Below are positions 11,613 through 23,711 of a DNA stretch of 24,000 nt, in pieces. Each line of letters begins with the position of its first letter. The first letter of the stretch is position 1. Location of the stretch: contig DATJZM010000043.1 of NCBI GenBank assembly GCA_035499135.1, forward strand, positions 18,721-42,720, in the 5' to 3' direction. Under the pieces are notes generated by a model, which saw only the letters and a program-made list of their open reading frames with translations, had not been told where the DNA came from and ran no database searches. This DNA comes from Casimicrobiaceae bacterium. Lineage in GTDB: Bacteria > Pseudomonadota > Gammaproteobacteria > Burkholderiales > Casimicrobiaceae. The translations under genes were made by a program, and so were the position numbers.

Positions 11613-11689
11613 CGGGGCGTAGCGCAGCCTGGTAGCGCACCTGCATGGGGTGCAGGGGGTCGTGTGTTCGAATCACATCGCCCCGACCA
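11613..11689 (+). tRNA. tRNA-Pro (anticodon GGG)
   Basis: Hand-folded: acceptor CGGGGCG/CGCCCCG, D arm GCGC-AGCCUGGUA-GCGC, anticodon arm CCUGC-AUGGGGU-GCAGG, T arm GUGUG-UUCGAAU-CACAU, encoded CCA. Confidence 0.95.
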
Positions 11690-11893
11690 CTTCCCCCCTC
11701 TGCGGGCGGCCGAAAAGGCCGCACGCCGGGCGGATTCTCGCGACGCGACTGCCGTCGCGGCAACGGCGGCGCTCCCGCAATCGGCCGCGCCTAGCCTTCT
11801 CCGGCCGGCCCTCCGAAGCGAGACAGTGTATCGTGCACGGCATAATAGTTGCTTCGGCGCAGGCCCACGCATTGTTTTGCAAGGACTTTCAAC

Positions 11894-13012
11894 ATGAGCA
11901 CGGCACAGCAGCGTGCCCCCGGCAAGCCGGGCGTTATTTCGGAACTGGCGCTCGCCAGGGCCCAGCGCAACACCGTCGTCATCATCGATGACCTGTTCAG
12001 CAGCCGACTGCTGCTGGCCGAGATCGTCCGGCAGATCGACGGCAAGCTCAACCTGGAACTGTTCGACACACCGAGCCGCGCGCTCGAATACGCGCGCAGC
12101 AACCGGGTCGACATGATCCTCACCGACTACAAGCTGCCCGAGTTCGATGGCGTGCAGCTCGTGCGACAGCTACGGGCACTGCCGCACTGTGTCGATGTGC
12201 CGATCGTGGTGATCACGGTGGTCGACGACCGCCGTGTGCGCTATCAGGCGCTCGAGGCGGGCGCCACAGACTTCCTGATCAAACCGCTCGACGAACATGA
12301 AACGCGAGCGCGCTGCGCCAACCTGCTGGAACTGCGTCGGCACAAGATCGTGCTTTCCGACCAGGCGCGAGTGCTCCAGTACCAGGTCGACAAGTCAGTG
12401 GCCGAGATCCATGAGCGCGAGCTGGAGACGCTCTCCAAGCTCGCCAAGGCGGGCGAATTCCGCGACCGCACGACCGGCAACCACCTCACACGCATGGCGC
12501 GCTATTCAGGGCTCATCGGCGTGAACCTCGGGCTTGCGCAGGAGACAGTCCACGTGCTGGAAGTCGCTGCGCCGATGCACGACATCGGCAAGATCGGCAT
12601 CCCCGACGCGATCCTGCTGAAGGACTCTCCGCTGACCGCCGCCGAGGACGAGATCATGCGGACGCACCCGCGTATAGGCTACGACATCCTCAAGGGCAGC
12701 CCCTCGAAATACCTGAGCATGGGCGCCATCATCGCGCTGGGCCATCACGAGAAATTCGACGGCTCGGGCTATCCGAACGGCCTGCACGGGGAAGACATCC
12801 CGATCGTGGCCCGCATCGTCGCCGTTGCCGACGTCTTCGACGCCCTGGTGAGCGAGCGTCCCTACAAGCACGCCTGGAGCATCGAGGAAGGCTTCGCTTA
12901 TCTGGAGTCCCAGAAAAGCAAGCATTTCGATCCGAGGTGCGTTGAGGCGTTCCTGGCGGGGGCGGAGAAGGTGCGGGAGATACACCGGGAATTCGGTGAT
13001 GTGACCGCTTGA
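11894..13012 (+). CDS. Two-component response regulator with REC + HD-GYP domains (RpfG-like c-di-GMP phosphodiesterase)
   Basis: 372 aa. Receiver motifs VVIIDD...MILTDYKLPEFDG...VVITV...IKP. HD-GYP motifs HDIGKIGIP...HHEKFDGSGYPNGL. GC is close to that of the flanking core genes. Confidence 0.9.
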   Translation: MSTAQQRAPGKPGVISELALARAQRNTVVIIDDLFSSRLLLAEIVRQIDGKLNLELFDTPSRALEYARSNRVDMILTDYKLPEFDGVQLVRQLRALPHCVDVPIVVITVVDDRRVRYQALEAGATDFLIKPLDEHETRARCANLLELRRHKIVLSDQARVLQYQVDKSVAEIHERELETLSKLAKAGEFRDRTTGNHLTRMARYSGLIGVNLGLAQETVHVLEVAAPMHDIGKIGIPDAILLKDSPLTAAEDEIMRTHPRIGYDILKGSPSKYLSMGAIIALGHHEKFDGSGYPNGLHGEDIPIVARIVAVADVFDALVSERPYKHAWSIEEGFAYLESQKSKHFDPRCVEAFLAGAEKVREIHREFGDVTA

Positions 13013-13058
13013 TGGTTCGTCCGCCACGCCGGCGCAGTGCTCGATTCCAGTCCTAGGG

Positions 13059-13085
13059 GCCCGTGCCAGCCAGGGCCTGGCGGGC
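13059..13085 (+). terminator. GC-rich hairpin downstream of the HD-GYP gene (possible terminator; no clear U-tract)
   Basis: GCCCG-T-GCCAG [CCAGGGC] CTGGC-GGGC: 10 bp stem with one bulge. The base composition drops sharply just 3' of it. Confidence 0.35.
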
Positions 13086-13121
13086 GCTTGATCCGATTAG
13101 GTAGTGTGCATCGCAGCGATG

Positions 13122-13154
13122 TGTAGGTATGTGTAGAATTGACTGTAGGCTACA
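13122..13154. promoter_or_regulatory. Phased TGTAG repeat array ending in the palindrome TGTAG-G-CTACA, interleaved with TTGACT -35-like hexamers; candidate operator/promoter upstream of the rpfF-like gene
   Basis: TGTAG at 13122, 13132 and 13144 (spacing 10 and 12 nt). Inverted copy CTACA at 13150-13154. Further copies at 13299 and 13322. TTGACT at 13139, 13158 and 13226. Confidence 0.4.
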
Positions 13155-13336
13155 TATTGACTTATCATCCCAGTATCGCTGGGGGGAAAAACTTAAGCAC
13201 ACCGGGCTAGCGATACGCCCCACTGTTGACTGGGGTATCTAGCATCAAGGCCGCTTGTGCGCCACAATAGCGAGCGGGAAAGAATTCGTCGACTCAATGT
13301 AGCCCACCGTCTTTAACCACCTGTAGGGAGGCCCCT

Positions 13337-14275
13337 GTGAATGCGATAGTCGATTTCCCGACTCTCACAACTCTAAATAGCTATGAGCAGATCGAGCTCG
13401 AGTTTGATTCCGAACTTAAGACGCTTTTTTCTTGGATGAAGCCTGAGCCAAGGCCCTGTTTTAATCCTGGACTGCTAGAAGAGATTCAGCATTGTGAACA
13501 GGCTATCGAGGTCCACCAAGGCCACTTCCACGACTCGGGGCGCCTCGCTCGGGTGAACTATGTCGTGTTTGGCAGCAAGGTCCCGGGTGTCTTTAATCTT
13601 GGTGGCGATCTAAGTATGTTTATCGATGCAATTATGCGCAAGGATCGCGAAACTCTCGTGTATTACGCACACCTCTGCATCGATAACCAATATCGTCGCG
13701 CGACTGGTTTTGGCGCGAGCATCACAACAATTTCGTTGTTACAAGGCAAAGCGCTGGGGGGCGGGTTTGAAGCCGCATTGGCAACCGACTTCATCGTTGC
13801 TGAGCGCAGTGTTTCTGTCTCCTTTCCAGAAATCCTGTTCAACCTCTTCCCCGGAATGGGCGCACTGAGTTTCCTTGCGCGGCGCATTGGTTTGAACAAG
13901 GCAGAAGAGATCATTGCCAGCGGGCAAATCTTCAGCGCGAGGGAGATGCTGGAGCTTGGGGTCTTCAACGAAGTCGTCGAAGACGGCCTTGGGCTTGAGG
14001 CGACTAGGCGCTTAATCCAGAATCGCCAGCGTCGCCAGAACGCATACAGCGCAATGCAGCGGGCAAAGAGCTACTACCAACCAGTGGCCTTATCAGACCT
14101 CAAAGGCATTGTTGATGTCTGGGTCGATGCCGCGATGCGACTGGAAACGCGCGACCTCCGGATGATGCATCGGCTGGTTCGAGCGCAAGACAGGCTAATG
14201 TCGGCGACACCAGAAGACGCCGTAGTCGAAACGCTTTACGCACCGGCCGAAATGGTCGCGGTTGGCAACGGCTAG
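13337..14275 (+). CDS. rpfF: RpfF-family crotonase (DSF-type cis-2-enoyl fatty acid signal synthase)
   Basis: 312 aa, GTG start 6 nt after GGGAGG. Blocks PRPCFNPGLLEEI, VFNLGGDL, GKALGGGFEAAL, FPEILFNLFPGMGALSF and VWVDAAMRLETRDLRMMHRLVRAQDRL match recalled Xanthomonas RpfF and Burkholderia BCAM0581. Both catalytic Glu equivalents are present (E145 at 13769-13771, E165 at 13829-13831). GC is much lower than in the flanks. Confidence 0.8.
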   Translation: MNAIVDFPTLTTLNSYEQIELEFDSELKTLFSWMKPEPRPCFNPGLLEEIQHCEQAIEVHQGHFHDSGRLARVNYVVFGSKVPGVFNLGGDLSMFIDAIMRKDRETLVYYAHLCIDNQYRRATGFGASITTISLLQGKALGGGFEAALATDFIVAERSVSVSFPEILFNLFPGMGALSFLARRIGLNKAEEIIASGQIFSAREMLELGVFNEVVEDGLGLEATRRLIQNRQRRQNAYSAMQRAKSYYQPVALSDLKGIVDVWVDAAMRLETRDLRMMHRLVRAQDRLMSATPEDAVVETLYAPAEMVAVGNG

Positions 14276-14284
14276 TCGCCAATG

Positions 14285-16882
14285 CTAGTGTGACGCGCCC
14301 CTTTTTTGGGTGTACGTGGTGAGGTGCGCCGAAGTAGCATCAAAGCATCGGCGCATCTCGGCGGCGAGTCGACGCAGTTGCTCGAACTGGGCACTCGCTG
14401 CAACTTCCTCTATTTCGACGCATTGAGCAGCAAGTTGTTCGGCACCGATGCCGAGCGCAACACCTCGGATCGCGTGCGTAATGTCCGTGAGCGTGGTCCG
14501 CTGCTCGGCGACAATTGCAGCATCTAGTCGTTTCAGCAAGCTTTCGACGTCACCTCGGAATCCTCGCAGGAGTTCCAGCAGGAACGTACTGTCACGCGAG
14601 ATACGCTCGACCTCTTGCATTCTCGCGTGATCGATCAGCTCAACAGTGGCAGGCCGGCTGGCTGCGCCGCTCCGAGCACGCTGCTGCTGTCCCTTGGTTG
14701 CCCGACGCGCTAGTCGATCGATCACCTGCAGAAGGCCCGCCGCCTCGAAGGGTTTGCCGACGAACTCATCTGCCCCAGCCTGCCTCGCTTTTTCTCTAGA
14801 TTCCTTTGTTACCGACGCGGACAAAATGATCACCGGCAAACGAGTACCAGTAGGCTCCATGGTCCTGATTGTAGTAACTACCTCGACACCGCTTCGCTCA
14901 GGCATATTGAAGTCAAGGATGGCGAGTTCCGGGTGCTCCGTTTCGTAAACATCTAGAGCTTCCTCCCCATCGGACGCAAGCAAGACCGTATGCCCGGCCG
15001 TCTCCAAGAGCTTGCGGATAATTGTCTGGTTTGTGGCATTGTCCTCGGCGACCAGGATGCGCTGTGGCTGTCTCTGTTCTTGCAGCACTTGACCGAGGTC
15101 GATGATTTCCGCGCCCTCAGTTGTCTCTCCGGTTGTTGCGGCATGAATTGCATTACGCAGGACTCGGGCCGAAATTCCGATGTCCAGACAGGTGACGCCG
15201 TCGATTCGACGTAACCTTGTCTTCTCCTGATCACTGAGTGGCCCATGCGACATGTAGATCATCGCCATAGGCCCTTTCTCCCGTTCAGCAGCAAAGACTT
15301 CAAACGTCTCGCACGCCCTGTTGACATCAGCCGCAACGATTAAGGCCTGCACCATGAGGTCTTGTTCCTTCAGGGCCTTCACTCGACGAAGCGCGCCCTC
15401 AGCAGATGTAGCGTGTTCAGCCCGATCGCAGACGGATGCTAGAAGCATATCAACTTGGGCTGTCGAAGCGTCGTCGGCAATAATCACCGCGACCGTCGGG
15501 CGCGCACCCGCTTCATCCGCCGACTGGCCGACAGGTGGTTGCAAGAGAACCTTAGTCTTCAGGAGTGGCAGCTCGAACCAGAAAGTACTGCCGGCGCCTG
15601 GGGTGCTCTTCAATCCTATGATGCCACCCATTAGTTCAACGAGCTGCTTGGCGATAGTAGTGCCCAGACCAGTCCCGCCATATCGGCGTGTCGTTGAATC
15701 GTCTGCCTGTACAAAACGCTCGAATATTCGCTGCTGTACAGCTGCATCAATCCCAATACCGGTGTCGCGAACCTCAAAGCGCAGGCGGAGGCCCTCGTCG
15801 GTTTCCGCGAGGAGCGTCACCTCGATACCCACTTCTCCGCGCTCTGTAAATTTGATCGCGTTTGAAAGCAAGTTTAGAAGCACCTGGCGCAGGTGATGGG
15901 GGTCGCCCCGAAGACGGTAATCGATTGCTGGGTCGATCATCGCTTGCAGCGCCAAACCCTTGGCTTGCGCATGCGGGCGTAACAGCTTTACTAAGCCATT
16001 AAGCGTTGCATGAAGATCAAAGTCGGCAATCTCAATATTCAATCTCCCCGCTTCGATCTTGGAGATGTCCAAGACGTCATCCACAAGTGAGCGCAGCAGC
16101 GTAACTGAATGGCGCAGCAAACGCATCAACTCAGTTTGCTGCGGACTTAGACTCGTCGTTTGTAGCAGGTCCGCCACCCCGACAATGCCGTTCAACGGCG
16201 TCCGCATCTCATGGCTCATGTTCGCCAGGAATGAGCTCTTCGCACGATTGGCGTCCTGGGCGCGAGCTTTCTCACGTAGGTTCACTCTTAAGAGCTTGGC
16301 CACGTAGAGCGGTAACAGGATCAGGGCGACCATCAGACAGATGCCAGCAGTGAAGTGGGGCTGCCAGAATGGCGCGTAGTTCAGAACTGAGGTAAACCCG
16401 GCGATGCACAGGAGTCCACACGCGAAGAGGTAAGGGATCCCGTAGCGAAAACCGTTTCCAAACGTGATAAACAAGTACACCCCAATCATCAGGAAGCCGA
16501 TTTCGTCCGTGAGAAACATCACGGCGGTTGCAGTTGCCGTATCGGCGAGCATCCCGATTAACCGGCGCGGAACGTTGGCTACTGGCCAGACGCAGATGCA
16601 AGCGAAGATTGCGAGCGCAAGGGCAAGATCAGCTTCGAGCACCATCAGAAGCAAGCTCGATGTGGAATGCCGCCATAACATGAGGGCCAACACTGCCCCC
16701 ACGATGACGATGCGAATGATCGCCTGCTCGGGCTCTGAGTCCGTGCGCGCGTTTAGGCGACGCCTGAAGACAGAAAACAGCGTGCCTAGCCGACTCAATG
16801 CGCGACCGCCTTCGTTCAGTTTTTGTGCGGTGTTATCCACAAGCTGTGACTTAGCAAGTAGCATGCCCACATCATGAAACAC
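14285..16882 (-). CDS. RpfC-like hybrid sensor histidine kinase (multi-TM sensor, HisKA, HATPase_c, degenerate receiver-like domain, REC, HPt)
   Basis: 865 aa. About five hydrophobic segments in residues 55-197, preceded by [14 protein letters not shown]-box [16 protein letters not shown] (H224). N/G boxes [21 protein letters not shown]. Receiver RILVAEDN...ILDFNMP (D657)...ILSAS...GKP. HPt-like [16 protein letters not shown] (H803). Start is uncertain: GTG 16882 or ATG 16864. Confidence 0.85.
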
Positions 16883-16904
16883 CTAAGTCATTGGTGCAGC
16901 ATAG

Positions 16905-16924
16905 GTTCTTATCTTGCCAAGAAC
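16905..16924. promoter_or_regulatory. 20-bp inverted repeat GTTCTT-N8-AAGAAC in the divergent kinase/luxR intergenic region (candidate operator)
   Basis: Perfect 6-bp arms (16905-16910 / 16919-16924), about 23 nt upstream of the kinase GTG start. Its size matches LuxR-type boxes, but its sequence does not resemble the lux box. Confidence 0.3.
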
Positions 16925-17084
16925 GAGTGTCGGACGCAAGGCGGCCAATAATGCCTGATTGGTCTGGGCACTTCGATGGGTACCCCTTGCAGATGGTGCT
17001 ATCGTCCTTAAGCCTAGCCGTACCCCTCGGTTGGCAACTGAGCTGCAAAGTCGGCGCGACCACACTTCCCTCACGAGCTACGAG

Positions 17085-17879
17085 ATGGCTTTCCATTCGC
17101 TGGAACTTCGGGGCCTCCGCGTACCGGATACTGGCACTACGCCATCGCTGCTCGCGCCACTTAAGGAGGCAGCGGAGCAGGGACGCGATTTGAGACCAGT
17201 GGTTGACGCTATTGTCAATTCTCTTGGTTTCGACAGCGTGATGTATGGGCTAAGTACGGCACTGCGCCCGGGCCAAGACAGTCTAGTCTTCTTCTTCACG
17301 AACGCATCTCTTGAATGGGTGCGTCGTTATGACCAAGAAGCTTACATTGAAGTGGATCCGAGGATAGAGCACGGAGTGGCATCAACGCTACCCCACATGT
17401 GGGACCAATCGACTGATCATGGTAAGTCGTCGCGTGTCGATGCGTTCCTGCGTGATGCAGCCGGTTTCGGTATCTGCAGCGGGGTATCCTTTATCCTTCC
17501 GGACACCCAGCGCGCGTCGGTCATACTGTGTCTGAACTCCAACCTTCGGCGCATCGATGATGAGCGAAGGGCTATGCTCGTGAGCAACTACGGCACGATG
17601 CTGATGTTCGGGTACTATTTTCATGAGCTGTTCATGCGCCACGTTGTTGATGCTGGAATGCCATCGCATCTGCAAGGGGCCCCCCTCACTGCACGTGAGC
17701 GACAGTGCCTCACTATGGCAGCGTGCGGGTTGACTACGGATGACATTGCCGAACGCCTGGGAATCAGGCCCAGAACAGCTCAGTTTCACTTCGACTCAAT
17801 CCGCACCAAACTCGCCGTCGCAACGCGGCACGAAGCCATTGCGCGCGCAGTGCAGACAAGACTTATCACCCTCAGCTAG
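17085..17879 (+). CDS. LuxR-family transcriptional regulator with N-terminal autoinducer (AHL)-binding domain and C-terminal GerE/LuxR HTH; no luxI in the window (LuxR solo)
   Basis: 264 aa. NASLEWVRRYDQEAYIEVDPRIEHGVASTLPHMWD...GFGICSGVSF reproduces the W57/Y61/D70/P71/W85/G113 (TraR numbering) pattern with identical spacing up to W85. C-terminus LTARERQCLTMAACGLTTDDIAERLGIRPRTAQFHFDSIRTKL is a LuxR-type HTH. The start at ATG 17085 is the best guess. Confidence 0.85.
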   Translation: MAFHSLELRGLRVPDTGTTPSLLAPLKEAAEQGRDLRPVVDAIVNSLGFDSVMYGLSTALRPGQDSLVFFFTNASLEWVRRYDQEAYIEVDPRIEHGVASTLPHMWDQSTDHGKSSRVDAFLRDAAGFGICSGVSFILPDTQRASVILCLNSNLRRIDDERRAMLVSNYGTMLMFGYYFHELFMRHVVDAGMPSHLQGAPLTARERQCLTMAACGLTTDDIAERLGIRPRTAQFHFDSIRTKLAVATRHEAIARAVQTRLITLS

Positions 17880-17955
17880 TTCGCTTAGCTGCGAGGCGTA
17901 GGGGGTCGCTAAGGAAGAATAGCCCATCCGTTCGAGCGCGGGCGGTGTTACTTAC

Positions 17956-18675
17956 CTACAACCTCCTCCACACCCCCTCCACCAGCCCCTCGATCGGCCT
18001 GAAGCTAGCCTTGTAGGCCATCTTACGGCTCTCGGCGATCCAGTAACCCAGGTACAGGTAGGGCAGCCCCAGCAGGCGACAGCGCTCGATCTGCCAGAGC
18101 ACGTTGTAGGTGCCGTAGCTCACCCCGGAGCCGCCCGGCTCGAAGAAGGTATATACCGACGACAGCCCATCGTGGAGACGGTCGACCAGGCTTACCATCC
18201 GTAGGCGGCCCTCCTCCCGAAACTCGAAAAGGTCGGTAGACACGTTGCTGTGCAGCAGGAAATGCTGGTATTGCTCGCGGCTGTCCTGGTCCATGCCTCC
18301 GCCGGGGTGCCGGTGGCGCTGATAGCGGAGGTACAGCGCGTAATGTTCGCTATCGAACTGCAAACTGCGCTTAACTGCCGCTAACTCGCCGTGCCTTTTC
18401 CAGGTCCGGCGCTGGCTGCGGGAGGGGGTGAACTCGCCTACCGCGACCCGGACAGGCACGCAGGCCCTGCAGTGGTCGCAGTAGGGCCGATACGTGAAAG
18501 CCCCGCTGCGCCGGAAGCCCAGCCGGACCAGGTCGGCATAGACCCGGGCGTCAATCAGATGGCTGGGGGTGGCCACCTGCGAGCGCGCCGCACGGCCCGG
18601 CAGATAGCTGCACGGGTACGGGGCCGTAGCGTAGAACTGCAGCGCGGCGAGTGGCAGGTCGTTGAGCTTGGTCAT
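17956..18675 (-). CDS. bpt: Arginyltransferase-family aspartate/glutamate leucyltransferase (bacterial N-degron pathway)
   Basis: 239-aa [37 protein letters not shown]...[25 protein letters not shown]...[19 protein letters not shown]. Its ATG overlaps the aat stop (ATGA). Confidence 0.9.
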
Positions 18676-19444: not shown

Positions 19445-20020
19445 GTGATGGCTCAGCTGCGGCGCTGCGCGTGGGCGGGAACCGATCCGCGCATGATCGC
19501 CTACCACGACGAGGAATGGGGCGTCCCGGTTCACGACGACCGGCGCTTCTTCGAGTTCCTCACCCTCGAAGGCGCCCAGGCGGGGCTCTCGTGGCAGACG
19601 ATCCTCAACAAGCGCGAGGCTTATCGCGAGGCCTTCGCGGGCTTCGACCCTACCCGCGTCGCCCGCTTCGACCGTCGGCGCGTTGCGCGGCTCCTCACGA
19701 ACCCCGGCATCGTGCGCAACCGGCTCAAGGTCGAAAGCACGGTCAGCAACGCTCGCGCGTTTCTCGCCGTGCAGCGCGAGCATGGCGGCTTCGATCGCTA
19801 TGTCTGGCGCTTCGTGGGCGGACGCCCCAAGAGGAATCGCTGGCGAAGCCTGGCGGACGTGCCGGCGCGAACGCCGGAGTCCGACGCGCTCTCGGCTGCG
19901 CTCGCCAAGCTGGGGTTCCGGTTCGTTGGTTCGACGATCTGTTACGCGTTCATGCAGGCGACCGGGCTGGTCGACGATCACCTGGTGAGCTGCTTCAGGA
20001 AGTCTCGGCGTCGGCCGTAG
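19445..20020 (+). CDS. tag: DNA-3-methyladenine glycosylase I
   Basis: RCAWAGTDPRMIAYHDEEWGVPVHDDRRFFEFLTLEGAQAGLSWQTILNKREAYREAF...FVGSTICYAFMQATGLVDDH. GGAGG at 19434-19438. Start is either GTG 19445 or ATG 19448. Confidence 0.9.
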   Translation: MMAQLRRCAWAGTDPRMIAYHDEEWGVPVHDDRRFFEFLTLEGAQAGLSWQTILNKREAYREAFAGFDPTRVARFDRRRVARLLTNPGIVRNRLKVESTVSNARAFLAVQREHGGFDRYVWRFVGGRPKRNRWRSLADVPARTPESDALSAALAKLGFRFVGSTICYAFMQATGLVDDHLVSCFRKSRRRP

Positions 20021-21809
20021 CCTGCGTGTCCGACTCGTTGCCGGAGCCGAACTGCAGCTCGGCCAGTCGCCGGTAGAGCGGATCGTCGCGCAGCAGCGAC
20101 GCGTGCGTGCCCTCGGCGAGCAGCGCTCCGCCCTCGAGCACGACGATGCGATCCGCGCCGATCACCGTCGCGAGCCGGTGGGCGATGATCAGCGTCGTTC
20201 GACCTGACATGAGGCGCGCAAGCGCGAGCTGCACCATGCGCTCGCTCTCCGCATCGAGAGCGCTTGTCGCCTCGTCGAGCAGCAGGATCGGCCGTCGCGA
20301 GAGCACGGCGCGCGCGATCGCGAGACGCTGGCGCTGGCCGCCCGAGAGCCTCACGCCGCGTTCTCCCAATTGTGTTTCGAAGCCCTGCGGCAAATGGCCG
20401 AGGAACTCGGTCGCATACGCCGCATCGCAGGCCTTGCGCACGTCTTCGTCGCTCGCGTCGGTCCGCCCGTAGCGCACGTTCTCCCACACGCTGGCCGCGA
20501 AGATCACCGGCTCCTGTGGCACGACCGCGATCCGCTCGCGCAACGCGCGGGGGTCCACTCGTCTTACGTCGACCCCGTCCACGCGCACAGTGCCGTGCTG
20601 CGGATCGTAGAAGCGAAGCAGGAGCTGGAACACGGTCGTCTTGCCCGCACCGGACGGCCCCACGAGGGCCACGCGCTCGCCGGGCGCAATGCGCAGCGAA
20701 AGGCCGCGCACGGCGGGATCGTTGGGGCGCGAGGGATAGGTGAATGTCACCTGCTCGAGCGCCACGGTGGCAGGCGATGGGTCCGGCAGCGCGAGCGGAG
20801 TGGCAGGAGCCGCGATCTCGGGAACCGTGTCGAGCAGCTCCAGCAGGCGCTCCGTGGCGCCCGCTGCGCGCTGCAGCTCGCCGGCGACCTCGCTCACCGC
20901 CCCGACCGAGGTCGCGACGATTACCGCATAGAAGACGAAAGCCAGAAGCTGACCTGGAGACAGCCTCCCGGCAAGAACGTCATGACCGCCGATCCAGAGG
21001 ATGATTCCCACGGCGACGAAGACAAGAAAGATCACTGCGGCAATCAGCAGCCCCCGCTGCCGTATGCGGCGCACGCCTGCCGCGAAAGCGGCCTCCACCC
21101 GCTGCGCATAGCCACTGCTCTCCTCTGGCTCGTGCGCATAGGCCTGCACCGTCCGGATCTCGTGGATGGCCTCGTCGACGTACGCGCCGGTGTCGGCCAC
21201 GCGATCCTGGCTTGTCCGCGCAAGGCGGCGGACGCGGCGCCCGAAGAGGATGATCGGCAGGACGACGACCGGCAGCCCCGCGAGCACGAGCAGCGTGAGC
21301 TTGAGGCTGGTCAGCGTGAGCAACACCAGGGCGCCGATGCCGAGCACGACGTTGCGCAGTGCGAGCGAAAGGCTCGAGCCGATTACGCTCTCGAGCATCG
21401 TCGTGTCATTGGTCAAGCGCGAGATCACCTCGCCCGTGCGCGTGACCTCGAAGAAGCCGGGCGAGAGCGTAAGCAGATGGTCGAAGACCCGCCGGCGCAG
21501 GTCCGCCGTCACGCGCTCGCCGATCCAGGACACCGTGTAGAAACGCACGTAGGTGGCGACAGCCATTACCGCGATGATCCCCAAGAGCGCAATCAGTGCC
21601 TGGTCGAGCGCGTGGCCGTCGTTGGCGGTGAACCCGCGGTCGACGACGAGCTTCAGCCCCTGCCCCACGGCCAGCGTGCAGCCGGCGGCGATCAGCAGGG
21701 CCGTCCCAGCGATCGCGAATCGACCGCGATACGGCAGCAGAAACTCGCCGAGACGGTGAAAGCTGCGCAACTTCGGCGACACTGCATTCGCCTCGGAGCG
21801 GGAAGCCAT
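19995..21809 (-). CDS. ABC transporter, fused permease/ATPase (ABCB / MsbA-Atm1-like exporter)
   Basis: 604 aa from MASRSEANAVSPKLRSFHRLGEFLLPYRGRF.... Six-TM exporter domain, then Walker A GPSGAGKTT, signature LSGGQRQR and Walker B ILLLDEATSALD. The ORF-track extension to 22082 overlaps the MFS-like frame and is rejected. Confidence 0.9.
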   Translation of the reverse strand: MASRSEANAVSPKLRSFHRLGEFLLPYRGRFAIAGTALLIAAGCTLAVGQGLKLVVDRGFTANDGHALDQALIALLGIIAVMAVATYVRFYTVSWIGERVTADLRRRVFDHLLTLSPGFFEVTRTGEVISRLTNDTTMLESVIGSSLSLALRNVVLGIGALVLLTLTSLKLTLLVLAGLPVVVLPIILFGRRVRRLARTSQDRVADTGAYVDEAIHEIRTVQAYAHEPEESSGYAQRVEAAFAAGVRRIRQRGLLIAAVIFLVFVAVGIILWIGGHDVLAGRLSPGQLLAFVFYAVIVATSVGAVSEVAGELQRAAGATERLLELLDTVPEIAAPATPLALPDPSPATVALEQVTFTYPSRPNDPAVRGLSLRIAPGERVALVGPSGAGKTTVFQLLLRFYDPQHGTVRVDGVDVRRVDPRALRERIAVVPQEPVIFAASVWENVRYGRTDASDEDVRKACDAAYATEFLGHLPQGFETQLGERGVRLSGGQRQRLAIARAVLSRRPILLLDEATSALDAESERMVQLALARLMSGRTTLIIAHRLATVIGADRIVVLEGGALLAEGTHASLLRDDPLYRRLAELQFGSGNESDTQATADAETS

Positions 21810-21813
21810 GGCG

Positions 21814-22002
21814 TTACCGCAGCTGCGTCGTCTGGTCGCCTGCCGGAAAGAATTCGGACGCGAAGTAAAGCGCGGTAAACGAGTAGACGTAAAAGTCGTA
21901 CCACTCGACGAGATTCCCTGAGGATCCGCCAACGATCGCCCACACGCGGCGACCGGTGTCCGATTTGCCGATACTGCGCTGCGGGTGGGCGACGGTAGCC
22001 AT
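21814..22002 (-). pseudogene. N-terminal remnant (62 codons) of an MHS-family MFS transporter (KgtP/ProP-like)
   Basis: [62 protein letters not shown]. The G.GN.VEWYDF..Y......F...FFP..d motif is the hallmark N-terminus of roughly 430-aa MHS symporters. Strong AAGGAG lies 6 nt upstream. TAA stop is 4 nt before the ABC exporter ATG. Confidence 0.6.
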
Positions 22003-22196
22003 GGCGTTCTCCTTCTTTCCGGGGACGCCGTCGTTCTACACCGGCACGTCCTGCAAGCCAAGCTCCGGCCGGCAGTAGGCACGGCGCTGGCAACCCCTTA
22101 GAATCCGCAACTCGCCGCGCGAAGGACCCTGCTCACCGCCGGGATTGCACTTGCGGAGGCGGCTCACCTTCTATCGATTCGCTCCAGGGCTCCCCC

Positions 22197-23711
22197 ATGA
22201 CCGCTGATGCCGACTTCATCGAACTCAAGCAACGCCTGAAAACCATCGAGAGCCTGCGCGAAGCGGAGTACGCGCTGATCTGGGACCAGGCCACGTACAT
22301 GCCGCCGAGCGCCGCGCCGTCTCGCGGCCAGCAGCTCGCCTTGCTCAGCAGCCTGGCGCACGAGCGCATGGCCGATCCGGCGATGGGCGGGCTGCTCGAT
22401 GCGGTGGCGCCGTGGGCGGAAGCGCAGGGAACCGACTCCGACGCCGCCGCGCTGGTGCGCGTGACGCGCCGCGAGCATGAGCGCGCGAAGCGCGTTCCGC
22501 CCGCCTTCGTGCAGCGTCTCAGCCAGCATACGGCGGAGACTTACGACGTGTGGCAGCGCGCCCGCCCGGCCAACGACTTCGCGGCGGTGCGCGACCGGCT
22601 GGAGACTACGGTCGAGCTCAGCCGTGAGCTCGCGGCCTTCCATCCCAGCCACGGCCATCCCTACGATGCGCTGGTCGATCTCGCGGAGGACGGCATGACG
22701 GTCAGCATGGTGCGCTCGCTTTTCGACGAGCTGCGCCCTGGGCTCGTGTCGCTGATCGAAGCGATCCGTCGGCGCCCCGAGCCCGACACGCGATGCCTTC
22801 GCGGCGACTTCCCCGAGATCGGCCAAAAAGAATTCGGGGAAAAGGTCATCCGCGCGTTCGGCTACGACTTCTCGCGCGGCCGGCAGGACAAGACCGCGCA
22901 TCCGTTCATGATCAAGCTCGGGCGCGGCGACGTGCGCATCACTTCCCGCTATCGCGACGACGACCTGTCCGAGGGTCTGTTCTCGACGCTGCACGAAGCC
23001 GGGCACGCGATGTACGAGCAAGGCATCGACGACGCGCTGGAGGGCACTCCGCTCTACCATGGGACAACAGCCGGCGTGCACGAGAGCCAGTCGAGGCTTT
23101 GGGAGAATCTCGTCGGGCGCAGCCTGCCGTTCTGGCGCCACTGGTACGCGTCGCTCAAGCGAACCTTTCCGCGCGCGCTCGATCGCGTCGACGTCGACAC
23201 GTTCTACGGCGCCATCAACAAGGTCACGCCCTCGCTCGTGCGCACCGGCGCCGACGAGGTCACCTACAACCTGCACGTGATGCTGCGCTTCGACTTCGAG
23301 CTCGCCCTGCTCGAAGGCAAGCTCGCGGTGGCCGATCTTCCCGAGGCGTGGCGGGCGCGCATCAAGCGCGATCTCGGCGTCGTGCCTGCCGACGACCGCG
23401 ACGGCGTGCTGCAGGATGTGCACTGGTACGGCGGTGTCGTCGGCGGGGCCTTCCAGAGCTACACGCTGGGCAACATCATGAGCGCGCAGTTCTTCGCTGC
23501 GGCGAGACGTGACATTCCCGACCTCGAGGCGAAGATCGGCGCAGGTGATTTCGGCGCTCTACGCGGATGGCTCACCGAGCGCATCTACCGCCACGGGCGC
23601 AAGTTCACCGCGCCGGAGATCGTCGAGCGGGCGACCGGCGAGCCCCTGTCGATCGCGCCGTATCTGTCCTACCTCAATACGAAGTACGGCGCTCTCTACG
23701 GCCTGTCGTGA
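22197..23711 (+). CDS. Carboxypeptidase Taq-type (peptidase family M32) metallopeptidase
   Basis: 504 aa. HPF motif (KTAHPFM), zinc site HEAGHAMYEQG, plus HESQSRLWEN, DEVTYNLHVMLRFDFE and GAFQSYTLGNIMSAQ. Confidence 0.92.
   Translation: MTADADFIELKQRLKTIESLREAEYALIWDQATYMPPSAAPSRGQQLALLSSLAHERMADPAMGGLLDAVAPWAEAQGTDSDAAALVRVTRREHERAKRVPPAFVQRLSQHTAETYDVWQRARPANDFAAVRDRLETTVELSRELAAFHPSHGHPYDALVDLAEDGMTVSMVRSLFDELRPGLVSLIEAIRRRPEPDTRCLRGDFPEIGQKEFGEKVIRAFGYDFSRGRQDKTAHPFMIKLGRGDVRITSRYRDDDLSEGLFSTLHEAGHAMYEQGIDDALEGTPLYHGTTAGVHESQSRLWENLVGRSLPFWRHWYASLKRTFPRALDRVDVDTFYGAINKVTPSLVRTGADEVTYNLHVMLRFDFELALLEGKLAVADLPEAWRARIKRDLGVVPADDRDGVLQDVHWYGGVVGGAFQSYTLGNIMSAQFFAAARRDIPDLEAKIGAGDFGALRGWLTERIYRHGRKFTAPEIVERATGEPLSIAPYLSYLNTKYGALYGLS

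Follow-up and report, generated by a model that had tools for sequence, protein, structure and literature searches.

What explains a block of low-GC genes that carries no mobility gene and breaks sharply with the conserved genes on either side of it? The question is raised by a stretch of 24,000 nucleotides of contig DATJZM010000043.1 (hereafter the window), which belongs to a metagenome-assembled genome (MAG) of a Casimicrobiaceae bacterium. Between a gene for a response regulator with an HD-GYP domain and bpt, the window carries genes for a synthase (identical to NCBI protein HTP46037.1), a sensor kinase and a LuxR-family regulator. Because the synthase falls in the RpfF clade, the kinase has RpfC architecture, the adjacent REC-HD-GYP protein is of the RpfG type and the third protein carries LuxR domains, the locus is, as judged from these homologies, an rpf-type quorum-sensing system of the diffusible signal factor (DSF) family plus a LuxR regulator. 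In our assessment, the block is likely to represent an old, pherotype-like cassette polymorphism of this chromosomal locus, with cassettes exchanged by recombination; the event that the comparisons best support would be a replacement in a standing slot rather than an insertion.

Different cassettes in near-identical flanks

When JGI metagenomes were scanned for exact matches to the conserved 3' end of bpt, seven contigs were obtained. Contigs of the window type (L091, L092 and L096) were 99.7-99.9% identical and came from the same sample series. In contig L093, the flanks matched the window at 98.9% (3' part of the HD-GYP gene) and 97.0% (bpt), whereas the 7.7 kb between them lacked nucleotide similarity to the window. 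This middle part encoded an RpfF-like synthase 40% identical to that of the window and an RpfC-like hybrid kinase 35% identical to its counterpart, together with a beta-ketoacyl synthase (KAS), an alpha/beta hydrolase and a fatty-acid desaturase; it had no LuxR gene. In contig L099, a bpt gene 97.8% identical to that of the window was followed by hydrolase, desaturase and kinase genes in a third order; this cassette, too, was unrelated to that of the window at the nucleotide level. The breakpoints in L093, and the right breakpoint in L099, fell on the same nucleotides as those seen against L081, the closest relative of the window. L093 and the window-type L092 share the JGI prefix Ga0335085.

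The L093 cassette belongs to a lineage that was also found in L009 and L016 (synthase 69-73%, KAS 65-68% and kinase 61% identical). Between L009 and L086, the flanks were 84% identical and the synthases 38%. GC content at third codon positions (GC3) was 0.58-0.67 in the cassettes of L093 and L099 against 0.84-0.92 in their flanks, and it reached 0.96-0.99 in L009, of the same cassette lineage as L093.

Composition and limits of the block

The composition of the window changes over the block. GC content was 0.559 over the block and 0.667 in the remaining window, and in 500-nt windows it dropped from 0.63-0.70 to 0.50-0.60 between about 13000 and 18000. GC3 was 0.607 for the synthase, 0.621 for the kinase and 0.599 for the LuxR gene; in the 15 other genes of the window it ranged from 0.74 to 0.87 (mean 0.818, sd 0.036), which places the three block genes 5.5-6 sd under the mean of their neighbours. 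The HD-GYP gene, with a GC3 of 0.827, is host-like. A preliminary description of this DNA had reported both the drop and the host-like partner gene, and both were borne out: the 60-nt lines that it had sampled gave 41.7%, 46.7% and 58.3% GC in the block and 71.7% for the core line when recomputed, and the codons that it had quoted are located at 13340-13378.

The limits that it had proposed were approximately right and needed two corrections. In alignments to L081 and L093, the left edge lies at 12984/12985, nine codons before the stop codon of the HD-GYP gene and thus within its 3' end, and the switch against L081 comes within a few bases, directly after ...GGGAGATACA. A GC-rich hairpin at 13059-13085, which had been taken to mark this edge, was rejected both as edge and as terminator, since its fold is not significantly better than those of shuffled sequences (z = 0.33) and it lacks a T-run. 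On the right, the edge coincides exactly with the bpt stop codon at 17956; the 76-nt spacer before it, formerly taken as the boundary, is therefore part of the block. Since the last nine HD-GYP codons (12985-13012) lie inside the variable block, the C-terminal tail of the regulator changes with the cassette. The tails read ...REIH-REFGDVTA in the window, ...REIQ-RQFGDEAA in L081 and ...REIQ-KIYADA in L093.

An old slot in Casimicrobiaceae

Eighty loci were retrieved through bpt, and further loci, L085-L087 among them, were reached through the synthase. An RpfF/RpfC-type module or the cassette LuxR occupied the slot in 15 of the 17 closest loci of the bpt search whose contig ran past bpt (L003-L017 and L020; none in L012, L018 and L019), and L085-L087 also carried the module there. 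The module or LuxR gene adjoined bpt and/or the HD-GYP-merR-ihfA genes. RpfF/RpfC-type pairs stood beside bpt or HD-GYP-merR in L003-L011, L013, L014, L016, L017 and L085-L087; the LuxR gene alone was visible in L001 and L015, and in L020 the start of the synthase gene alone, followed by the contig end.

The order HD-GYP, synthase, kinase, LuxR, bpt was common to L081, L083 and L005. L088 had the same order up to the kinase, at its contig end, and in L004 the three cassette genes adjoined bpt with LuxR inverted. GC3 in these five loci was 0.51-0.64 in the cassette and 0.72-0.89 in the flanks; in L083, L005 and L004, which are relatives at the species level, the cassette genes had 0.54-0.64. 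The synonymous sites of the cassette were saturated against L083, L005 and L004 (proportion of synonymous differences, pS, 0.75-0.89), which indicates that both the arrangement and the low GC3 long predate these species. Elsewhere, the pair was inverted and accompanied by a hydrolase gene (L003, L007 and L013), the synthase gene adjoined bpt without LuxR (L006, L008, L010, L017, L085 and L086), or a different cassette lineage with a ketoacyl synthase was present (L009 and L016); the synthase of L014 was 41% identical to that of the window. Several differently configured cassettes of other family members had a host-like GC3 of 0.78-0.99. In L018, a more distant relative, pyrD followed bpt. At the level of gene order, this comparison shows the slot between HD-GYP and bpt to be old and usually occupied by a cassette in Casimicrobiaceae.

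Two further loci had unusual arrangements. In the more distant L087 (12650-14752), two tandem LuxR (Autoind_bind) genes and a C-terminal KAS III fragment were found between the RpfC-like kinase gene and a truncated HD-GYP gene; LuxR thus recurs as cassette cargo. In L085 (11863-15824), the HD-GYP gene is cut to an HD_5 fragment of 94 aa, and genes for 2-oxoacid dehydrogenase E1 and E2 lie between this fragment and the kinase gene, which we read as a slot that has decayed or been rearranged in a single lineage.

These results bear on the first of the rival explanations, namely that the block was recently acquired from a donor of lower GC and inserted, as a still unameliorated islet, between HD-GYP and bpt. 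The strong deficit in GC and GC3, the sharp edges and the host-like HD-GYP gene all speak for it, and lower-GC MAGs related to Casimicrobiaceae (L018, 0.54; L011, 0.59) could be donors. However, no empty site, with HD-GYP abutting bpt, was present in any retrieved locus; the cassette was there wherever both genes were. The preliminary description, which had spoken of an insertion between core genes and by implication a recent one, had proposed to look for relatives with these two genes side by side; none was found, and the slot is occupied in most relatives; the claim of insertion is not supported. In addition, orthologous low-GC3 cassettes are present in L083 and L005, and with LuxR inverted in L004, at the saturating distances given above. 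The arrangement is thus older than these species, and time for amelioration has been ample.

Searches for means of mobility were likewise negative, in agreement with that description. Pfam searches of the three cassette genes and both flanking genes found no integrase, recombinase or transposase, the gene tables of the syntenic loci listed no mobility genes, and no meaningful flanking direct repeats (attachment, att, sites) were found at the block edges. The absence of an integrase and an att site also counts against a recent islet, an explanation that the synteny already largely refutes and that we hold to be improbable. An ancient, merely unameliorated locus had been named as the other outcome, to be recognized in part by orthologous low-GC genes at the same position; such genes do occur there, but cassettes are also swapped in near-identical backgrounds, and the locus is thus more than merely unameliorated.

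A 14-nt motif, GG(T/C)G(C/A/T)(A/T)GGGGGTCG, was found in three copies, in the T-arm region of the tRNA-Pro gene (11649-11662), the kinase gene (15892-15905) and the spacer before bpt (17895-17908). The tRNA-Pro gene was considered as an att site and rejected: the match extends over 14 nt at 86% (two mismatches), and the host-like HD-GYP gene separates the tRNA gene from the block. Given the third copy inside the kinase gene, we judged the match between tRNA-Pro and spacer to be due to chance and no att remnant.

Divergence of the block and selective constraint

The proteins encoded in the flanks were 93-100% identical to those of L081. At the nucleotide level, identity was 92-97% in the flanks (89% in one 200-nt window) and 58-88% in the block, and it changed exactly at 12985 and 17955. 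The number of synonymous substitutions per site (dS) against L081 was 0.69 for the synthase, 0.88 for the kinase and 1.00 for the LuxR gene, as compared with 0.07-0.29, about 0.18, for ten genes of the flanks. The ratio of nonsynonymous to synonymous substitutions (dN/dS) in the block was 0.06-0.14, so that its genes are under purifying selection. A compositional artefact was considered as the source of the excess in dS and rejected, because G<->C changes per fourfold site that is GC in both sequences remained 3.6-fold more frequent in the block (0.193) than in the flanks (0.053). The divergence of the block is therefore no by-product of GC bias. At each depth sampled, divergence was faster in the block than in the flanks.

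The HD-GYP protein was 98% identical to that of L081 (dS 0.16), and its gene is a conserved flank that encodes the presumed output of the system. The preliminary description had suggested a locus of composite origin, with a resident regulator and three acquired genes, and the composite nature was confirmed: the HD-GYP gene resembles the backbone in GC3, amino acid identity and dS, and synthase, sensor and LuxR form an evolutionary unit separate from it.

A second rival explanation is purely vertical, fast evolution in situ without any exchange of cassettes, driven by a mutation hotspot at the locus or by relaxed selection on codons, which would lower GC3 and raise dS. It would agree with the observation that the cassettes of the window and L081 are reciprocal closest relatives, with the faster divergence of the block at each sampled depth and with a dN/dS so low that it fits conserved function. 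It does not account for L093 and L099, in which the gene content differs (KAS, desaturase and hydrolase, and no LuxR) and the L093 synthase is only 40% identical inside flanks that are 97-99% identical, or for the contrast between flanks and synthases in L009 and L086. The 3.6-fold excess was measured on G<->C transversions, which are immune to GC bias. By our own estimate of mutation bias, the difference in GC3 alone would give a less than about 1.7-fold difference in rate. We therefore regard exclusively vertical descent as improbable too.

Synthase, kinase and LuxR proteins

In a search of PDB with the synthase, the best matches were RpfF structures: 6dgn and 5fus at 6-7e-56 and 3m6m at 4e-52. 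Together, 6dgn, 5fus, 3m6m and 7zq7 matched at 6e-56 to 5e-49 and outscored ordinary enoyl-CoA hydratases (6e-15) by about 40 orders of magnitude. The search gave molecule names alone; we take 6dgn and 5fus to be the RpfF proteins of Cronobacter and Burkholderia (B. cenocepacia). The synthase passed the NCBIfam crotonase family NF006452 (PRK08788) with 350 bits against a cut-off of 177, and it fell short of the RpfF equivalog NF053515 with 220 against 550 bits; for this reason we call it RpfF-like and no strict RpfF equivalog. The catalytic glutamates E145 and E165 were invariant across eight cassette synthases, and homologs of the synthase carry the JGI label 'DSF synthase'. One homolog, 59% identical, is labelled Acidobacteriaceae. 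A cluster look-up of distant homologs gave almost no organism names and thus offered no grounds for claiming cross-phylum transfer of the synthase.

The kinase has about five transmembrane (TM) helices at residues 52-198 according to hydropathy, followed by HisKA, HATPase, REC and HPt domains in Pfam, a layout that, by domain order, is the architecture of RpfC. Compared with L081, the TM sensor was 57% identical in amino acids (dN 0.37), while the kinase core, REC and HPt were 90-93% identical (dN 0.04-0.08). The receptor input domain is thus the most divergent part of the kinase. About 160 residues between HATPase and REC (residues 446-605; window 15068-15547) had no Pfam match and by eye resemble a degenerate receiver.

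The LuxR open reading frame (ORF) is open upstream to a TTG at 16959; the ATG start given in Table 1 is backed by a call of 264 aa in the near-identical contig L091. In an alignment with LasR, W60, Y64, D73, P74, W88 and G113 were kept and Y56 was replaced by Ala, so that the autoinducer-binding domain, which precedes a GerE helix-turn-helix, retains six hallmark residues of the acyl-homoserine lactone (AHL) pocket. In the syntenic loci L081 and L083, the gene tables contained no autoinducer-synthase (luxI-type) domain out to about 10 kb. With its canonical pocket of the AHL type and no luxI listed in these tables, the cassette LuxR, a putative LuxR solo, probably adds a second input, eavesdropping or regulatory in nature.

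If the locus works like RpfF, RpfC and RpfG in Xanthomonas and Stenotrophomonas, its crotonase would convert an acyl-ACP (acyl carrier protein) intermediate into a cis-2-unsaturated fatty-acid signal. The hybrid kinase would detect this signal through its 5-TM input, and a HisKA-REC-HPt phosphorelay would activate the adjacent REC-HD-GYP protein, which in turn would hydrolyse cyclic di-GMP (c-di-GMP). The comparisons show several deeply diverged cassette lineages, with unlike orientation and accessory content (LuxR, ketoacyl synthase, alpha/beta hydrolase and fatty-acid desaturase), which replace one another at fixed breakpoints. Since mobility genes and att sites are absent and the identical breakpoints lie at the limits of homology, we infer that homologous recombination within the conserved flanks brings about the replacement, a mode known from capsule and pherotype loci. 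The difference in accessory enzymes between cassettes suggests a different signal chemistry.

Weight of the evidence and cause of the low GC3

The weakest alternative, that L093 and L099 are assembly or binning artefacts in which window-like flanks are joined to the cassette of another organism, draws on the fact that these are short-read metagenome contigs with short flanks, but it is highly improbable, because L093 would need two independent switches precisely at both cassette edges, flanks of 97.0-98.9% rather than 100% identity speak against reused window reads, L099 independently has a non-window cassette at the same right breakpoint, the bpt genes of L009 and L016 (78-82% at the protein level) are too divergent for shared assembly k-mers, and the contrast between the window and L081 does not depend on either contig.

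Several points nevertheless weigh against the exchange of old cassettes as we read it. The comparison sequences were MAGs or metagenome contigs throughout. The claim that L093 and L099 belong to the same species as the window rests on 0.79 + 0.37 kb and 0.59 kb of flank, respectively, and a double assembly chimera is an unlikely but relevant concern. The mutual closeness of the window and L081 cassettes means that the excess divergence could reflect faster evolution in situ or retained old alleles instead of import. The dN/dS ratio never exceeded 1, and any positive or diversifying selection on the sensor is putative. The shortfall of the synthase from the equivalog cut-off implies that its product may differ from known DSFs, and the proposed signal production, phosphorelay and c-di-GMP hydrolysis are assigned by homology and family paradigm.

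Low GC3 was found in each cassette in the slot of the window lineage, for which we consider two options. First, cassettes may be exchanged within a lower-GC gene pool inside the family, whose MAGs span 0.54 to 0.72 GC. Second, the low GC3 may be a local equilibrium, GC-biased gene conversion being absent from a block too divergent to recombine, with homogenisation confined to the flanks; this hypothesis would explain why the block is divergent in excess and why unrelated cassettes of the lineage have a uniform GC3. The two options fit the data alike. A broader scenario, which we offer tentatively and consider rather doubtful, is a balanced polymorphism in one species of soil Betaproteobacteria, in which DSF 'pherotypes' with chemically different signals, one type with a LuxR and another with a ketoacyl synthase, a desaturase and a hydrolase, would be exchanged through the flanks at fixed breakpoints and the low GC3 would be no mark of a donor but the footprint of long-term recombination suppression.

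Upstream elements and neighbouring genes

The features of the locus are collected in Table 1. The sigma-70-like promoter match upstream of the synthase contains the palindrome TGTAGGCTACA (13144-13154), which is kept between the window and L081 although the spacer around it has diverged. A second palindrome, TTGTGCGCCACAA, occurs once in the window, where 0.01 occurrences would be expected by chance. Three cassette lineages (L081, L083, L006, L010, L007, L013 and L003) had the pattern TTGT[G/T]-N3-CACAA upstream of their synthase genes, and it was not found at this place in the L093/L009/L016 lineage. ACCTGTAGG at 13318-13326 was considered as a lux-box and rejected, as it matches a half-site only and overlaps the ribosome-binding site.

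To the left of the block, the genes run thrS-infC-rpmI-rplT-pheS-pheT-ihfA-merR-tRNA-Pro, then REC-HD-GYP; the motif HHEKFDGSGYP is readable in the translation of the last. To the right, LuxR is followed by bpt-aat (-), tag (+) and an ABC transporter gene (-). The bpt gene had a GC3 of 0.85, and its product was 98% identical to that of L081. Compared with the window (near 21811), L081 has about 1.15 kb of additional sequence between the ABC transporter and peptidase M32 genes (L081:15541-16694), which overlaps a called MFS transporter gene. For the 695-aa ABC ORF of the window (19995-22082), a start near 21809 is probable, in line with the 604-aa gene of L081. An overlap of two long ORFs on opposite strands (22164-23423, -; 22197-23711, +) is of a kind common in high-GC DNA. 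By synteny with L081, the plus-strand ORF is the true gene, for a peptidase M32; the minus-strand ORF has an atypical GC content at first codon positions (GC1) of 0.86.

Table 1. Positions in the window of the variable block, its genes and the features around it.
Feature	Position	Strand	Basis and remarks
Variable cassette, low-GC, hyper-divergent	12985..17955	no strand	GC drop, identity drop against L081, breakpoints shared with L093 and L099
RpfF-like DSF-family synthase, crotonase fold, 312 aa	13337..14275	+	Pfam ECH_1
RpfC-like hybrid sensor histidine kinase, 865 aa	14285..16882	-	Pfam HisKA, HATPase, REC, HPt; hydropathy
LuxR-family regulator, 264 aa from ATG 17085	17085..17879	+	Pfam Autoind_bind, GerE
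RpfG-type response regulator, REC + HD-GYP	11849..13012	+	Pfam Response_reg 43-154, HD_5 209-363
bpt (arginyl/leucyl-tRNA protein transferase), conserved right flank	17956..18675	-	Pfam ATE_N, ATE_C
tRNA-Pro(GGG)	11613..11689	+	ARAGORN; within the conserved backbone, 1.3 kb to the left of the block
Sigma-70-like promoter match TTGACT-18-TATCAT	13139..13168	+	Consensus scan, 10/12 matches; candidate by consensus alone
Palindrome TTGTGCGCCACAA, candidate operator for a regulator	13255..13267	no strand	About 70 nt upstream of the synthase start

Relation to known systems and significance

The locus resembles the rpf clusters of Xanthomonas, Xylella and Stenotrophomonas in having a crotonase with both catalytic glutamates, a 5-TM HisKA-HATPase-REC-HPt kinase and an adjacent REC-HD-GYP gene. 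It differs from the Xanthomonas type in its betaproteobacterial host, in a synthase that is slightly closer to 6dgn and 5fus than to the Xanthomonas-type 3m6m and lies below the RpfF equivalog cut-off, in the absence of an rpfB-type acyl-CoA ligase from the gene tables of the syntenic loci, and in a LuxR with an autoinducer-binding domain inside the cassette. The closest solved RpfF structures, 5fus and 6dgn, which we take to come from B. cenocepacia and Cronobacter, also invite comparison with the RpfF-RpfR system of those genera, whose signal is BDSF (Burkholderia DSF); there the receptor is the cytoplasmic PAS-GGDEF-EAL protein RpfR, whereas here it would be an RpfC-type membrane hybrid kinase acting on an HD-GYP protein.

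In the pherotype loci of Gram-positive peptide quorum sensing (agrBDCA, comQXPA and comCDE), a single locus with conserved flanks holds alternative, highly divergent alleles of synthase and receptor, and divergence is greatest in the receptor input domain. The present locus is similar in that deeply divergent alleles of synthase and receptor occur at one locus in near-identical backgrounds, as seen over short flanks of metagenome contigs. In contrast to those loci, the signal is presumably a fatty acid, the alleles also differ in gene content, and any allele specificity is putative here.

A further parallel comes from Stenotrophomonas maltophilia, in which variation within the species is greatest in rpfF and rpfC, the cluster variants rpf-1 and rpf-2 are distinguished by their sensor input region, and horizontal exchange with recombination breakpoints has been proposed (PMC4517397). 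Variable synthase and sensor genes and a pattern of exchange are common to both cases. In Casimicrobiaceae, however, the divergence is far deeper (40% amino acid identity for the synthase and 35% for the sensor between alternative cassettes), gene content also varies (LuxR as opposed to ketoacyl synthase, hydrolase and desaturase), breakpoints are located at the edges of the cassette and not within rpf genes, and the cassettes have a strong GC3 deficit.

Our literature searches found no report of DSF pherotypes or rpf clusters in Casimicrobiaceae, which proves no novelty; the papers on this family that they returned were ecological surveys. Most of what is known of DSF signalling comes from Xanthomonadaceae and Burkholderia, and allelic diversification of pherotypes is known mainly for Gram-positive peptide signals. 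The locus described here suggests that fatty-acid quorum sensing in uncultured soil Betaproteobacteria can also take the form of alternative, non-homologous cassettes in one chromosomal slot. It is also a clear exception to the rule by which low GC in the absence of mobility genes marks a recent island, as the slot is old and its long-diverged orthologs are equally low in GC3. Such cassettes would make it possible to test how lipid signals serve social discrimination.

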